This document shows positions 5,472 to 11,994 of a DNA stretch of 64,000 nucleotides, piece by piece. Below the pieces are notes generated by a model, which was not told the origin of the DNA, searched no databases, and worked only from the letters and a program-made list of their open reading frames with translations. This DNA comes from Escherichia coli (GTDB lineage Bacteria > Pseudomonadota > Gammaproteobacteria > Enterobacterales > Enterobacteriaceae), in the NCBI RefSeq assembly GCF_050920415.1, contig NZ_CP169309.1; one strand, written 5' to 3'. Within the stretch, counting starts at the first letter, position 1, and each line of letters opens with the position of its first letter. A program made the translations under genes and the position numbers.

Positions 5472-6389
5472 ATGCCACTCTCAAAGCTCTGGGCAGGTTC
5501 ACTGGTTTTGTTGGCAGCCGTGAGCCTGCCGCTACAGGCGGCTTCTGCCGTTAAAGTCGGTTCAAAAATCGATACCGAAGGCGCGCTACTCGGCAACATT
5601 ATTTTGCAAGTGCTGGAAAGCCACGGCGTACCGACGGTGAATAAAGTCCAGTTGGGAACCACGCCGGTGGTGCGCGGCGCGATCACTTCTGGCGAGCTGG
5701 ATATCTATCCGGAATATACCGGTAATGGCGCTTTCTTCTTTAAAGATGAAAATGATGCGGCGTGGAAAAATGCCGGACAAGGCTACGAGAAAGTCAAAAA
5801 GCTCGATGCAGAGCAAAACAAGTTAATCTGGCTAACGCCCGCGCCTGCAAATAACACCTGGACCATCGCCGTGCGTCAGGATGTGGCAGAGAAAAATAAA
5901 CTCACTTCGCTTGCCGACCTGAGTCGTTATCTGAAAGAGGGTGGCACCTTCAAACTGGCAGCCTCGGCTGAGTTTATCGAACGCGCCGATGCCTTACCCG
6001 CTTTTGAAAAAGCCTACGACTTTAAACTCGGTCAGGATCAGTTGCTGTCACTGGCCGGTGGCGACACGGCGGTGACAATCAAAGCTGCTGCCCAGCAAAC
6101 ATCCGGCGTTAATGCGGCGATGGCTTACGGCACCGACGGCCCGGTCGCGGCGCTGGGGCTGCAAACCTTAAGCGATCCGCAAGGCGTGCAACCTATCTAC
6201 GCGCCTGCACCAGTGGTGCGTGAATCGGTGTTGAAGGAGTATCCGCAAATGGCACAGTGGCTACAGCCAGTCTTCGCCAGCCTCGATGCAAAAACATTGC
6301 AGCAACTGAATGCCAGCATTGCTGTGGAAGGACTGGATGCCAAAAAAGTGGCTGCCGACTACCTGAAACAAAAAGGGTGGACGAAGTAA
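5472..6389 (+). CDS. osmF: ABC transporter periplasmic glycine-betaine-binding protein
   Basis: 305 aa with signal peptide; first gene of four co-directional ABC-transporter genes matching K-12 osmF-yehYXW. Confidence 0.9.
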   Translation: MPLSKLWAGSLVLLAAVSLPLQAASAVKVGSKIDTEGALLGNIILQVLESHGVPTVNKVQLGTTPVVRGAITSGELDIYPEYTGNGAFFFKDENDAAWKNAGQGYEKVKKLDAEQNKLIWLTPAPANNTWTIAVRQDVAEKNKLTSLADLSRYLKEGGTFKLAASAEFIERADALPAFEKAYDFKLGQDQLLSLAGGDTAVTIKAAAQQTSGVNAAMAYGTDGPVAALGLQTLSDPQGVQPIYAPAPVVRESVLKEYPQMAQWLQPVFASLDAKTLQQLNASIAVEGLDAKKVAADYLKQKGWTK

Positions 6390-6395
6390 TTTCCC

Positions 6396-7553
6396 GTGAC
6401 TTATTTCCGTATTAATCCTGTTCTGGCGCTGCTGCTGTTGCTGACGGCAATCGCAGCGGCGCTGCCGTTTATCAGTTACGCGCCTAATCGTTTAGTCTCG
6501 GGTGAGGGGCGTCATCTCTGGCAGCTGTGGCCGCAAACGATCTGGATGCTGGTGGGCGTTGGTTGCGCCTGGCTGACCGCCTGTTTTATTCCCGGTAAAA
6601 AAGGCAGCATTTTTGCACTCATTCTGGCGCAATTCGTCTTCATATTGCTGGTGTGGGGCGCGGGAAAGGCGGCGACACAACTGGCGCAAAATGGCAGTGC
6701 GCTGGCGCGTACCAGCCTCGGCAGTGGTTTCTGGCTGGCTGCGGCGCTGGCACTGCTGGCCTGTAGCGATGCCATCCGCCGAATCTCCACGCATCCGCTG
6801 TGGCGCTGGTTGTTGCATATGCAGATTGCCATTATTCCGCTGTGGTTGCTGTATTCCGGCGCGCTTAACGATCTCTCGCTAATGAAAGAATACGCCAACC
6901 GTCAGGATGTGTTTAATGACGCGCTGGCGCAACATCTGACGTTGCTGTTTGGTGCGGTGCTGCCTGCGTTAGTGATTGGTGTGCCGCTGGGCGTCTGGTG
7001 CTACTTTTCCACTGCGCGGCAGGGGGCGATTTTTTCTCTGCTGAATGTCATTCAGACCGTGCCTTCGGTGGCGCTCTTTGGCCTGTTGATTGCGCCGCTT
7101 GCCGCGCTGGTTACGGCCTTTCCGTGGCTGGGAACGCTCGGCGTAGCAGGAACCGGAATGACACCCGCACTGATTGCCCTGGTGCTCTATGCCTTGCTGC
7201 CGCTGGTGCGCGGTGTGGTAGTCGGCTTGAACCAGATCCCGCGCGATGTGCTGGAGAGCGCCAGAGCGATGGGCATGAGCGGGGCGCAGCGATTCCTGCA
7301 TGTTCAGTTACCGCTGGCGTTACCGGTATTTCTGCGCAGCCTGCGGGTGGTGATGGTGCAAACCGTCGGCATGGCGGTGATTGCGGCGTTAATCGGCGCA
7401 GGTGGTTTTGGTGCGCTGGTTTTCCAGGGGCTGCTAAGCAGTGCCATTGATTTAGTGTTGCTGGGGGTGATCCCGGTAATCGTACTGGCGGTGCTGATCG
7501 ACGCACTGTTCGATCTGGTTATCGCACTGCTGAAGGTGAAAAGTAATGATTGA
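6396..7553 (+). CDS. yehY: ABC transporter permease
   Basis: 385 aa, multi-TM; GTG start at 6396; stop overlaps yehX start. Confidence 0.85.
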
Positions 7554-8472
7554 ATTTAGCCATGTCAGCAAACTGTTCGGCACACAAAAAGCCGTTAACG
7601 ATCTCAACCTCAATTTTCAGGAAGGGAGTTTCTCGGTGCTGATTGGTACATCAGGCTCCGGTAAATCCACCACATTGAAAATGATCAACCGTCTGGTAGA
7701 GCATGACAGCGGAGTGATCCGCTTTGCCGGAGAAGAAATTCGCTCGCTGCCAGTGCTGGAGTTACGCCGCCGGATGGGCTATGCCATTCAATCTATTGGC
7801 CTGTTTCCCCACTGGAGCGTGGCGCAAAACATTGCTACTGTGCCGCAATTACAAAAATGGTCGCGGGCGCGGATCGACGACCGTATCGACGAATTAATGG
7901 CGCTACTGGGGCTGGAGCCAAATTTGCGTGAGCGTTATCCGCATCAGCTTTCCGGTGGTCAGCAGCAACGTGTGGGAGTGGCCCGCGCGTTGGCTGCCGA
8001 TCCGCAAGTCTTACTGATGGATGAACCTTTTGGCGCACTGGACCCGGTAACGCGTGGTGCGTTGCAACAAGAGATGACGCGTATTCACCGTTTGTTAGGG
8101 CGCACCATTGTGCTGGTCACTCATGATATTGATGAGGCGCTACGGTTGGCAGAACATCTGGTATTGATGGATCACGGTGAAGTGGTGCAGCAGGGCAATC
8201 CTCTGGCGATGCTGACTCGTCCGGCGAATGATTTCGTCCGCCAGTTTTTTGGCCGTAGTGAACTGGGGGTCCGCCTGCTTTCGTTACGTAGCGTGGCGGA
8301 TTATGTGCGCCGCGAAGAACGGGCAGAAGGTGAGGCACTGGCAGAAGAGATGACGCTACGCGATGCGCTCTCCCTGTTTGTCGCGCGGGGATGCGAAGTG
8401 CTGCCGGTGGTGAACACGCAGGGCCAGCCTTGCGGCACGCTGCATTTTCAGGATCTGCTGGTGGAGGCGTAA
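7546..8472 (+). CDS. yehX: ABC transporter ATP-binding protein
   Basis: Walker [13 protein letters not shown] signature LSGGQQQRV, Walker B LLMDEP. Confidence 0.9.
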
Positions 8473-8476
8473 GCGT

Positions 8477-9208
8477 ATGAAGATGTTGCGCGATCCGCTG
8501 TTCTGGCTCATTGCTCTGTTTGTGGCACTGATTTTCTGGCTGCCTTACAGCCAGCCGCTGTTTTCTGCCTTGTTCCCACAACTGCCACGCCCCGTTTATC
8601 AGCAAGAAAGTTTTGCTGCTCTGGCACTGGCTCATTTCTGGCTGGTGGGAATTTCGAGTTTGTTTGCGGTGATCATTGGCACAGGTGCCGGAATTATTGT
8701 TACTCGCCCGTGGGGCGCGGAATTTCGCCCACTGGTGGAAACTATTGCCGCCGTTGGGCAGACTTTTCCGCCCGTTGCGGTGCTGGCGATTGCCGTTCCG
8801 GTGATTGGGTTTGGTCTGCAACCGGCGATTATCGCCTTGATCCTGTACGGTGTGCTGCCCGTCCTGCAGGCGACACTTGCCGGGCTGGGAGCGATTGATG
8901 TCAGCGTGACAGAAGTTGCGAAAGGTATGGGAATGAGCCGTGGTCAGCAACTGCGTAAGGTCGAGCTACCGCTGGCGGCTCCGGTGATTCTGGCGGGCGT
9001 GCGAACTTCGGTGATTATCAACATTGGTACGGCGACGATCGCCTCAACGGTAGGGGCCAGCACGCTGGGTACGCCCATCATCATCGGGCTTAGCGGATTT
9101 AATACCGCGTATGTGATCCAGGGGGCGTTACTGGTGGCACTGGCGGCGATCATCGCAGACCGCCTGTTTGAAAGGCTGGTGCAGGCGCTTAGCCAGCACG
9201 CAAAATAA
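8477..9208 (+). CDS. yehW: ABC transporter permease
   Basis: 243 aa hydrophobic protein, last gene of the osmF-yehYXW operon. Confidence 0.85.
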
Positions 9209-9296
9209 AGGTATAACCTGCGAGCATGACGCCACCAATTCCGCCTAACGCCATAAAAAGGAACAGGGCGATGACCCCAATTTTAGCTATGCGCAT
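9189..9296 (-). CDS. yohO: small membrane protein, 35 aa (below the ORF-track size cutoff)
   Basis: Minus-strand ATG at 9296, stop at 9189-9191; translation [35 protein letters not shown] matches recalled K-12 YohO; 3' end overlaps the yehW 3' end antisense. Confidence 0.75.
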
Positions 9297-9355
9297 AATG
9301 CACTCCTTATGTTAACGAAAGGATTGTACAGTAAAGCGCATTTGTTAACGAATCA

Positions 9356-10087
9356 TTAAATGCCGAGTGGGAAAATATCATGGCCTTGTTCCTGCCAACT
9401 GGTAAGTTGCTGCTGTTGGGCAGAGGTTCGATTTTCACCGCACCACACCAGCAATGTACGGCCTTCGAACAGTTCTGGGCGTAGTTGATTGAGCGAGTGG
9501 GCGAGGACATCAATGCGCCATCCTTGTTGACTGGCAATCCAGCCCTCTAGCCACAGACGGGTGGTATCCTGAATATTCCAGCCAACCACTAGCGCATCTT
9601 TACCCTGTTTTTTACGTGCCGAAGCCAGACAAATGGCGATGTAGTTGATCAGTACGCCGTCGAGGATCGCCAGCAGCGCCTGGAGAGTCGGTTGTTGGCA
9701 CTGAAGCCGTCGGCGCAGAGGAATAAACAGGTGCGTGGTGAGTGTCTGGGCGGGGTAATCCTGACCGCGCTCTTTGATCCACGTTCGCAGGCTATGCAGA
9801 TTGCCGCTTTGCAGGTAAGTCAGTAATGTTTCTTGCTGATCGCGCCAGCCGTTCTGCACATCAACATTTTCATTACTGAGCAGCATTTTAACTTTGCTGA
9901 CCTGCACGCCGTTGTCGATCCAGCGTTTGATCTCGCGGATCCGGTCAATATCGGCATCATTGAACAGCCGATGACCGCCGTCTGTCCGTTGCGGTTTCAG
10001 CAATCCGTAACGCCTCTGCCACGCGCGTAACGTGACAGGGTTAATATCACAAAGCAACGCCACTTCACCAATTGTGTAAAGCGCCAT
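9356..10087 (-). CDS. mlrA: MerR-family transcriptional regulator (activator of csgD)
   Basis: 243 aa; N-terminal MerR HTH (MALYTIGEVALLCDINPVTLRAWQRRYGLL). Confidence 0.9.
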   Translation of the reverse strand: MALYTIGEVALLCDINPVTLRAWQRRYGLLKPQRTDGGHRLFNDADIDRIREIKRWIDNGVQVSKVKMLLSNENVDVQNGWRDQQETLLTYLQSGNLHSLRTWIKERGQDYPAQTLTTHLFIPLRRRLQCQQPTLQALLAILDGVLINYIAICLASARKKQGKDALVVGWNIQDTTRLWLEGWIASQQGWRIDVLAHSLNQLRPELFEGRTLLVWCGENRTSAQQQQLTSWQEQGHDIFPLGI

Positions 10088-10308
10088 CGTCTCACCCTTG
10101 CTCGCGAGGTCCCAGTTTAACTTTAGACGCAGTTTTGCGAACCAGGTAGTTTTGCCCGTTTTTTGTTCATCTATAGGGTGATTTTATTTTTGCCAGGCGA
10201 TTTTGAGTGATCGTACTCACGAATTCTCATTTTTCTGCAAGAGTTCAAAGAAAGTTAAAGGCAGGCAATGTATGTTACGCGTTTTAAAGGGAAGTGTGGT
10301 TTGCGGGT

Positions 10309-11994
10309 ATGTACGATTTTAATCTGGTGTTGCTGCTGCTTCAGCAGATGTGCGTTTTTTTAGTCATTGCGTGGTTAATGAGTAAAACGCCATTATTCAT
10401 ACCGTTAATGCAGGTCACGGTTCGTCTGCCGCATAAATTTCTCTGCTACATCGTCTTTTCCATCTTCTGCATCATGGGCACCTGGTTTGGGCTGCACATT
10501 GACGATTCTATTGCCAATACCCGTGCGATTGGTGCGGTAATGGGCGGCTTACTCGGCGGTCCGGTCGTCGGTGGGCTGGTTGGTCTGACCGGCGGGTTAC
10601 ATCGATATTCGATGGGGGGCATGACCGCGCTAAGTTGCATGATCTCGACCATCGTTGAAGGATTGCTCGGCGGCCTGGTACACAGCATCCTGATCCGTCG
10701 CGGGCGTACTGATAAAGTCTTTAATCCCATTACCGCGGGTGCCGTCACGTTCGTCGCTGAAATGGTGCAAATGCTGATCATCCTGGCGATCGCCCGACCT
10801 TATGAAGATGCGGTGCGTCTGGTGAGTAATATTGCTGCGCCAATGATGGTCACCAATACCGTCGGCGCGGCGCTGTTTATGCGTATATTGCTCGATAAAC
10901 GCGCGATGTTTGAAAAATACACTTCGGCTTTTTCTGCTACTGCGCTGAAAGTGGCTGCCTCGACGGAAGGCATTTTGCGCCAGGGGTTTAACGAAGTGAA
11001 CAGCATGAAAGTGGCACAGGTGCTGTATCAGGAGCTGGATATTGGTGCAGTCGCGATTACCGATCGAGAGAAATTGCTGGCTTTTACCGGAATTGGTGAC
11101 GACCACCATTTACCCGGCAAACCGATTTCTTCGACTTACACCTTAAAAGCGATTGAAACCGGTGAAGTGGTCTACGCCGATGGCAACGAAGTGCCTTACC
11201 GTTGCTCGTTGCATCCGCAATGCAAACTGGGTTCGACGCTGGTGATTCCGTTGCGTGGTGAAAATCAGCGGGTGATGGGCACCATCAAATTGTATGAAGC
11301 CAAAAACCGTTTGTTCAGTTCAATCAATCGCACGCTGGGCGAGGGGATTGCGCAACTGCTTTCGGCGCAGATCCTCGCCGGGCAATATGAGCGGCAAAAA
11401 GCGATGCTCACCCAGTCAGAGATCAAACTGCTTCACGCCCAGGTGAACCCCCATTTTTTGTTTAATGCGCTTAACACCATTAAAGCGGTGATCCGCCGCG
11501 ACAGCGAACAGGCCAGCCAGCTGGTGCAGTATCTTTCCACTTTTTTCCGTAAAAACTTAAAGCGGCCTTCGGAGTTTGTTACTCTCGCCGACGAAATTGA
11601 ACATGTGAATGCTTATCTGCAAATTGAAAAGGCGCGCTTCCAGTCGCGGTTGCAGGTCAACATTGCTATTCCGCAAGAATTATCCCAGCAGCAATTGCCC
11701 GCGTTTACCCTGCAACCGATAGTGGAAAACGCTATTAAACATGGGACATCACAACTGCTCGATACAGGGCGAGTGGAAATCAGCGCCCGACGTGAGGGGC
11801 AACATTTGATGCTGGAGATCGAAGACAATGCCGGTTTGTATCAACCGGTAACCAATGCCAGTGGGCTGGGGATGAATCTGGTGGATAAGCGTTTACGTGA
11901 ACGGTTTGGCGATGACTATGGGATAAGCGTCGCCTGTGAGCCTGATAGTTACACCCGAATAACGTTACGACTACCATGGAGGGACGAGGCATGA
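10309..11994 (+). CDS. btsS: sensor histidine kinase (LytS type, 5TM-GAF-HK)
   Basis: ORF 10294..11994; start at ATG 10309 ([13 protein letters not shown]...), 561 aa; stop overlaps btsR start (ATGA). Confidence 0.9.

Follow-up and report, generated by a model that had tools for sequence, protein, structure and literature searches.

The 35-codon open reading frame (ORF) between yehW and mlrA in the window, the whole 64,000-nucleotide stretch of Escherichia coli DNA that was analysed, is yohO, a gene for an inner-membrane protein that is already annotated, named and experimentally detected and is not new. According to our overall reading, to which we assign a probability of about 80%, this known gene is under purifying selection, probably has a promoter of its own, shares an ancestral overlap with yehW and encodes a single membrane helix with a proposed role in helix packing. 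The gene, the detection of its product by ribosome profiling (Ribo-seq) and mass spectrometry (MS), and its listing as part of an excludon were all known beforehand, and the finding as such is ordinary. The features of the locus are collected in Table 1.

Table 1. Positions of yohO, its neighbours and the putative expression signals in the window, with the basis of each assignment
Feature	Position	Strand	Basis
yehW, last gene of osmF-yehYXW, glycine betaine ABC transporter permease	8477..9208	+	RefSeq product name
yohO, single-pass small membrane protein	9189..9296	-	ORF, RefSeq, NF010225, conservation, AlphaFold2
Convergent overlap of the yohO and yehW coding sequences, 20 nt including both stop codons	9189..9208	.	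ORF coordinates
Shine-Dalgarno sequence AGGAG, 6 nt before the ATG	9303..9307	-	Sequence; present, at times as a close variant, in essentially all orthologous loci
Proximal TTAACA (GTTAACA), at about the predicted transcription start, just 5' of the Shine-Dalgarno sequence	9310..9315	-	Spacer alignment
Candidate -10 box TACAAT (TATAAT in most genera), 26 nt before the ATG	9323..9328	-	Near-invariant in spacer alignment
Distal TTAACA, 14 nt upstream of the -10 box, overlapping the candidate -35 region	9343..9348	-	Spacer alignment, mlrA-less contexts
Weak candidate -35 box TTCGTT, 18-nt spacer	9347..9352	-	Alignment; inferred
AT-rich block ATTTAATG, containing the mlrA stop codon (9356..9358)	9354..9361	-	Spacer alignment
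mlrA, same-strand upstream neighbour, 59-nt spacer to the yohO ATG	9356..10087	-	ORF listing, RefSeq

Identity, expression and conservation of yohO

In the ORF listing of the window, the frame starts with ATG and its 35 codons are followed by a TAA stop codon. The RefSeq coding sequence WP_001216963.1 in a 100%-identical record coincides with it base for base between yehW and mlrA. Megablast of positions 8900..9700 matched 5423 of 5426 complete E. coli genomes, and the records listed annotate "yohO: protein YohO" beneath the match. The translated protein scores 80.1 bits against the NCBIfam equivalog NF010225 (curated cutoff 57), with residues 1–35 aligned to profile positions 1–35, and an exact-sequence look-up found it identical to YOHO_ECOLI, the UPF0387 membrane protein YohO, on at least 1000 contigs. 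A Pfam-A scan of YohO gave no family match, the sole result being an insignificant one to B12D (E = 0.39); PF27791 (UPF0387_membrane) is present in the precomputed labels of orthologous loci. Sequence, coordinates and mlrA-yohO-yehW context are the same as those of the YohO family (NF010225/PRK13681; PF27791; YOHO_ECOLI), and no difference was seen. The original prediction of a gene for a 35-aa yohO-like membrane peptide was right in that this is a real small membrane-protein gene, but the "like" can be dropped because the RefSeq coordinates, the NF010225 match and the exact identity to YOHO_ECOLI make it yohO itself. That the gene was missed by the ORF track is correct, but reflects merely the length threshold of that track.

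YohO (35 aa) was detected by top-down MS in a 2025 proteomics study (PMC12529367), and published Ribo-seq data cover yohO in the correct frame, so that the check by ribosome profiling that had been suggested for this ORF already has a positive answer. For the membrane association of YohO, the Ribo-seq paper cites Hemm 2008. In Shigella flexneri M90T, yohO mRNA had a log2 fold change of -2.96 without as compared with the presence of O2, and no FNR effect is listed. An unrelated screen recovered, in its first round, live cells of an IPTG-induced ASKA clone of yohO. The searchable literature, a body without the primary small-protein papers, yielded no paper that assigns a function to YohO and no functional experiment on it.

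The comparison drew on a total of about 200 loci orthologous to this one, in Enterobacteriaceae and Erwinia. The MlrA-anchored set comprises 80 loci, one genome per species, from Escherichia, Citrobacter, Salmonella, Enterobacter, Leclercia, Lelliottia, Kosakonia, Phytobacter, Pluralibacter, Buttiauxella, Atlantibacter, Franconibacter, Cedecea, Yokenella and other genera; the metagenome set comprises at least 120 loci on yohO-anchored contigs, retrieved with a degenerate pattern for the invariant core of the protein. A YohO homologue lies between mlrA and a convergent yehW in all 80 mlrA-anchored loci, one of which (L002) retains only a 3' remnant of yehW. The gene is intact in 79 of the 80, with 35–37 codons, an ATG start and a preceding AGGAG or close variant; in L009, the sole exception, a T-run is longer by one T, owing to an assembly error or marking a strain-level pseudogene. 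Among the matches listed, 118 of 119 metagenome loci start with ATG.

Substitutions in yohO follow the pattern of a coding sequence. Mean column entropy at the first, second and third codon positions is 0.57, 0.23 and 1.23 bits, respectively (codons 2–28, outside the yehW overlap), and pN/pS is 0.29 for codons 2–28 and 0.09 for codons 15–28, which encode the Gly-rich core. The yohO frame is open in all 80 compared sequences, as against at most 43 of 80 for any other frame. YohO is hence a protein under purifying selection in Enterobacteriaceae and Erwinia. Conservation of the ORF beyond the end of yehW, which the original prediction had suggested as a check, is evident from codon-periodic substitutions in the 29 codons outside the overlap. 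Lack of a translation signal and conservation due entirely to yehW, which would have spoken against the gene, are both contradicted: AGGAG, Ribo-seq and MS attest translation, the coding pattern extends outside the overlap in a frame that is open throughout the compared sequences, and even within the overlap it is YohO that leads (see below).

The same data bear on the view that the frame is a chance ORF whose apparent conservation stems from the yehW end or from signals in the 3' flank of mlrA. ORFs of such size are frequent (76 of at least 20 aa within 5 kb) and length alone is not significant, but the overlap with yehW accounts for only 20 of the 108 nt, the remaining codons are three-periodic in substitution with the low pN/pS given above, no other frame is comparably open, and the protein has been seen by MS and Ribo-seq. 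Refuted by these two detections, by intactness in 79 of 80 loci and by coding selection, a chance origin has a negligible probability; yohO is more than chance because of its conservation, its annotation and its experimental record taken together.

An exhaustive HMMER search of 1.84 billion representatives returned 17 matches at E <= 1e-3, all of them members of the YohO family or mis-called versions thereof, many of these gene calls being frameshifted or chimeric. The members with a named source belong to Escherichia, Shigella, Salmonella, Citrobacter, Klebsiella, Raoultella, Enterobacter, Buttiauxella, Mangrovibacter, Shimwellia and Erwinia. Against NF010225, the homologue from Erwinia reaches 68.6 bits, and a Cedecea-like variant, at 44.7 bits, falls short of the cutoff.

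The region upstream of yohO

Alignment of 64 spacers of at most 110 nt, out of 71 unique ones, gave the consensus AtTTAAtg.TTcaTTAACA-N14-gTAtAAT-N7-tTaA.CA.aAGGAG-N6-ATG. The conserved -10 box emerged only from this cross-genus alignment: a simple consensus scan for promoters and terminators gave nothing above shuffle expectation and missed the box because the -35 box is weak. Among the matches listed, 66 of 68 unique metagenomic upstream regions have a TAYAMT box 25–33 nt before the ATG, and a Shine-Dalgarno sequence was found by a strict regular expression in 62 of 68. The candidate -35 box reads TTCATT, TTTATT or TTATGT elsewhere, only the TT at positions 1–2 being kept consistently. The AT-rich block, which is kept as ATTAATG or ATTTAATG in Klebsiella and Shimwellia loci that lack mlrA, may be UP-element-like.

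Although mlrA is upstream of yohO in 80 of 88 informative metagenome loci among the matches listed, the cassette is also kept in its absence, namely in the Klebsiella pneumoniae group (divergent btsS upstream), Shimwellia blattae (TonB-dependent receptor upstream), Mangrovibacter (metG or an HTH gene upstream), locus L179 and a Cedecea-like lineage. The gene upstream of yohO in L179 is divergent and putatively DinG-like, after E. coli DinG. The proximal TTAACA is kept in the mlrA-less contexts and lost in the Cedecea-like lineage. Since the cassette of AT-rich block, weak -35 box, TATAAT, leader of about 20 nt and AGGAG travels with yohO whatever lies upstream, yohO very probably has its own sigma-70-type promoter. 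The scan found no terminator-like hairpin in the spacer between mlrA and yohO, so that transcripts from mlrA, where it is present, may also read through into yohO.

The convergent overlap with yehW

The overlap with the 3' end of yehW on the opposite strand, originally put at about 20 nt, is exactly 20 nt long. Overlaps of 20, 23 and 26 nt occur in the genome set and of 14, 17, 20, 23 and 26 nt when the metagenomes are included; the length is always 2 mod 3, and the frame relation between the two genes is therefore inherited. Within the overlap, the YohO tail has an entropy of 0.15 bits per site as against 0.96 for the YehW tail in the 26-nt class, and of 0.60 as against 1.18 in the 20-nt class. 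The penultimate residue of YehW varies among E, G, A and V with the wobble base of the YohO Val32 codon. YohO is the constrained partner inside the overlap, and the YehW tail drifts with the wobble positions of YohO.

Among the matches listed, 113 metagenome loci have at least 150 nt of sequence downstream of yohO; yehW overlaps it by 14–26 nt in 108 of these, is present with alignment irregularities in two and is lacking in three. In a search for YehW homologues, the best 120 relatives all had at least 77% identity. The Erwinia variant (MNWQKIG..., 34 aa) also has mlrA upstream (~55% identity) and overlaps yehW by 14 nt. Given that Erwinia shares the arrangement, mlrA-yohO-yehW predates the split of Enterobacteriaceae and Erwiniaceae; the tail-to-tail overlap of yohO and yehW is, judging from this distribution, ancestral across Enterobacteriaceae and Erwinia. 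Its persistence is explained most simply by physical linkage, as separating the genes would truncate both; near-constant linkage is expected because overlapping genes are inseparable without damage to either.

The operon on the other side of the overlap has been lost in a few cases. Three loci (L095, L126 and L172, labelled uncultured Cedecea sp. or Klebsiella sp. BIGb0407) make up the Cedecea-like lineage and lack osmF-yehYXW entirely; here, yohO converges directly on bglX (NF011678, 1505 bits), the gene just beyond osmF in other loci. The TATAAT box is kept in all three, and the ratios of synonymous to nonsynonymous codon differences in yohO are 5:2, 12:3 and 11:3, counts that come from only three short sequences. 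Because L179 has the same putatively DinG-like upstream gene as this lineage and retains the operon, secondary deletion is the simplest reading of the loss. In Escherichia sp. MOD1-EC7003 (L002), a 3.5-kb deletion equivalent to positions 5586..9115 of the window removes yehY and yehX completely, osmF for the most part and all but the last 93 nt of yehW, and leaves yohO intact and 100% identical.

As a side effect of the overlap, each of the two transcripts is antisense to the other at its 3' end. The 130 nt 3' of the yohO and yehW stop codons fold no better than shuffled sequences (z = -0.91 and -0.24, respectively), the scan found no convincing terminator after either stop codon, and Rfam gave no match within positions 8000..10500. 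With overlapping coding sequences and no terminator, the yohO and yehW transcripts must overlap. The pair yohO-yehW is indeed among the 165 convergent excludons of strain MG1655 reported with ExcludonFinder, which calls an excludon where 50% or more of 58 RNA-seq samples show overlapping transcripts (NAR 2025, PMC12288877). It resembles other convergent excludons in the listed transcript overlap and the lack of a terminator, and differs from them in that the coding sequences overlap here and not the untranslated regions alone. The antisense interplay that had been suggested for this pair thus holds as far as an unavoidable and catalogued transcript overlap is concerned, but PMC12288877 contains no regulatory effect specific to the pair.

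The arrangement could nevertheless have been kept for regulation at the RNA level. Transcription from the yohO promoter would then proceed antisense into the sigma-S-dependent osmF-yehYXW mRNA at its 3' end, and vice versa, and transcriptional interference or RNase III cleavage would make expression of the two mutually exclusive. The excludon listing, the overlapping coding sequences with no terminator-like structure 3' of either stop codon and the conservation of the overlap across the family are compatible with such a role. So is the regulation of the two sides: osmF is part of the core RpoS regulon and sigma-S dependence is cited for yehZYXW, while the -10 box of yohO is sigma-70-like, and different growth-phase programmes are therefore plausible. 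We regard an RNA-level function as unlikely but deserving of some weight, in view of the following points. The entry in the list is not accompanied in PMC12288877 by double-stranded RNA, RNase III or anticorrelation data for this pair, and the Shigella RNA-seq dataset lists yohO but not the yeh genes. The conserved coding overlap is just 20–26 nt long, with a sequence set by the YohO protein and no obvious RNA element, and yohO persists with its promoter where yehW is gone. Descent and physical linkage account for the conservation of the overlap.

The YohO helix and its relation to OsmF-YehYXW

The prediction of a single transmembrane helix is borne out by hydropathy and structure prediction. 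YohO has a GRAVY of 1.58; the mean Kyte-Doolittle value is 2.17 over residues 6–32 and 2.41 in the best window of 19 residues. AlphaFold2, run with 79 unique family members, predicts one helix from residue 3 to 34 with a mean pLDDT of 93.2. Searches of the PDB by sequence and by profile gave no match to YohO, nor did PADLOC (defence systems) or PHROGs (phage families). Among the 79 unique sequences, M1, G19, I20, G22, V23, M24, L25, G27 and Y28 are invariant, and conservation of K5, M15, A16 and I31 reaches at least 90%. Hydrophobic residues replace one another freely in the N-terminal half of the helix, and conservation is concentrated in the C-terminal half (M15 A16 x G/S18 G19 I20 G/S21 G22 V23 M24 L25 x G27 Y28). 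Invariant residues occupy all faces of the helix, and a single packing face is therefore not demonstrated. Lys or Arg at positions 2 and 5 together with Arg or His at position 33 weakly favour an N-in orientation.

Some transporters and membrane complexes of E. coli are modulated by small membrane proteins, namely KdpF, AcrZ, MgtS, CydX and SgrT. YohO is similar to them in size, in its single transmembrane helix, in the conservation of intramembrane residues and in the position of its gene next to a transporter gene. It differs in that it has no sequence similarity to any of the five and in that yohO is convergent to the operon, has a putative promoter of its own and survives loss of the operon. 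By analogy to these proteins, YohO would insert as one transmembrane helix with its Gly-rich C-terminal half as a helix-packing surface and would bind another membrane protein or self-associate. We give roughly even weight to this mode of action, in which the binding partner in particular is inferred from the analogy and the conservation pattern.

By linkage, the Yeh transporter would be a candidate partner, and modulation of the transporter was part of the original prediction. YohO could be a dedicated accessory or regulatory subunit of OsmF-YehYXW that binds YehW or YehY in the way KdpF, AcrZ and MgtS bind their partners. A convergent yehW accompanies yohO in all 80 mlrA-anchored loci (as the 3' remnant only in L002) and in 110 of the 113 metagenome loci among the matches listed, the link holds in Klebsiella, Shimwellia, Mangrovibacter and L179 despite other upstream neighbours, and the Gly-rich transmembrane core, which is invariant, is of a kind typical of helix-helix packing. 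A dedicated subunit seems distinctly improbable all the same: yohO stands outside the operon on the opposite strand with its own probable promoter, the overlap alone predicts the linkage, a search for interaction data was negative, and YohO is absent from solved structures. Moreover, yohO is still intact in Escherichia sp. L002, where the operon is deleted, and has an excess of synonymous differences in the operon-less Cedecea-like lineage, from which it follows that YohO is maintained without the transporter. Since yohO survives under selection where osmF-yehYXW is deleted, the Yeh transporter cannot be the sole reason for its retention. Transporter modulation is left unsupported by these loci, which, in a small sample, point away from an obligatory partnership of YohO and Yeh. 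The near-universal linkage to yehW would still fit a functional connection, a reading that the few operon-less cases weaken.

RNA-level and protein-level effects might also be combined in an ancient switch of two layers. Sigma-70-type transcription of yohO in growing, aerated cells would extend into the 3' end of the osmF-yehYXW mRNA and lower its level, and YohO would dock by its Gly-rich helix on YehW, YehY or another membrane complex and tune its activity. We consider such a switch speculative and quite improbable; if it were true, the operon-less lineages would keep YohO for a second target.

A short, very hydrophobic peptide of 35 aa with a convergent overlapping transcript also bears a superficial resemblance to type I toxins restrained by an overlapping antisense transcript. 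YohO shares these two properties with Hok, Ldr, Ibs, TisB and ShoB, but is readily translated from a strong, accessible Shine-Dalgarno sequence and detected in ordinary cultures, is encoded by a single-copy gene under strong purifying selection, and is tolerated on overexpression, the induced ASKA clone having grown. It is the 3' end of yohO, not its translation start, that the antisense overlap covers, no dedicated small RNA accompanies the gene, and neither PADLOC or PHROGs nor, for an antisense RNA, Rfam gave a match. With ready detection, conservation, single copy and tolerated overexpression all disfavouring it, a toxin is highly improbable.

Packing of the YohO helix against a membrane partner or against itself is the mode of action that we propose, and YohO is among the small membrane proteins of E. 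coli without an assigned function. Comparison of the loci reduces the possibilities: the protein is what selection acts on, most strongly in its invariant Gly-rich half-helix. They are reduced further in that a conserved promoter would belong to yohO itself and that the tie to yehW appears to be ancestral and not obligatory. In this way, the comparison may aid the assignment of a function to YohO.

yohO at loci lacking the transporter genes

In Escherichia sp. MOD1-EC7003, one of the genomes collected by way of mlrA, ~3.5 kb has been deleted (see table for the equivalent interval and the junction), by which most of osmF and all of yehY and yehX are gone and only the last 93 nt of yehW remain, while yohO and its promoter are untouched. 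The osmF-yehYXW operon is also absent from three metagenome contigs of a Cedecea-like enterobacterial lineage (L095, L126, L172), on which a putative DinG-like gene and a 373-aa gene precede yohO, and bglX converges on it from the other side. No NCBIfam match was found for the 373-aa gene, which may be RoxA/YcfD-like. The YohO variant of this lineage scores 44.7 bits against an NCBIfam cutoff of 57 (NF010225, 'protein YohO') and is annotated solely as 'hypothetical protein'.

In the window, yehY, yehX and yehW are tightly packed, as is typical of translationally coupled ABC-transporter operons. Within yehW and adjoining yohO, Genomic SELEX placed an RpoE-holoenzyme binding peak (E. coli K-12 map position 2214150) with an intensity of 4.0, exactly the cutoff value (PMC5493296).

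Coordinates of features at the yohO locus and in related genomes
Feature	Coordinates	Strand	Remark
yehY/yehX overlap	window 7546..7553		8 nt shared
yehX/yehW junction	window 8472..8477		4 nt apart
TTAACA, proximal copy	window 9310..9315	minus	flanks -10 box
TTAACA, distal copy	window 9343..9348	minus	flanks -10 box
Deleted interval, MOD1-EC7003 (L002)	equivalent to window 5586..9115		~3.5 kb
Deletion junction	L002 3961-3972		~12 nt microhomology
T-run, C. amalonaticus (L009)	L009 3815-3830		one T longer

Upstream neighbours and apparently altered copies

Loci of the Klebsiella pneumoniae group (L088, L089) are without mlrA and carry a divergently oriented btsS 229 nt from yohO; an mlrA homologue with ~62–70% identity is present at Raoultella/K. 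oxytoca-type loci. NCBI assigns one 36-aa 'protein YohO, partial' (P0212 in the protein cluster) to an Enterococcus faecalis MAG, almost certainly owing to Klebsiella/Raoultella DNA contaminating the bin.

Two copies of yohO appear altered. The lengthened T-run in Citrobacter amalonaticus AUH_CA_2023_1 shifts the reading frame after codon 12, which is probably a homopolymer assembly error; alternatively, it may be a strain-level pseudogene. On metagenome contig L124, unrelated sequence (LLFLMFLFN...) replaces the promoter and the first ~10 codons, and the ATG is missing at its usual position; either the locus has been rearranged or the contig is an assembly chimera.

Repeated motif around the candidate -10 box

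The two TTAACA copies flanking the candidate -10 box of yohO (TACAAT) sit within GTTAACA and CGTTAACA. In the cross-genus spacer alignment both copies are kept in most genera, and in a subset of the Citrobacter freundii group a deletion of 8 nt shortens the stretch that separates the -10 box from the distal copy. The pair could be the site of a regulator, or could just mark the transcript start.
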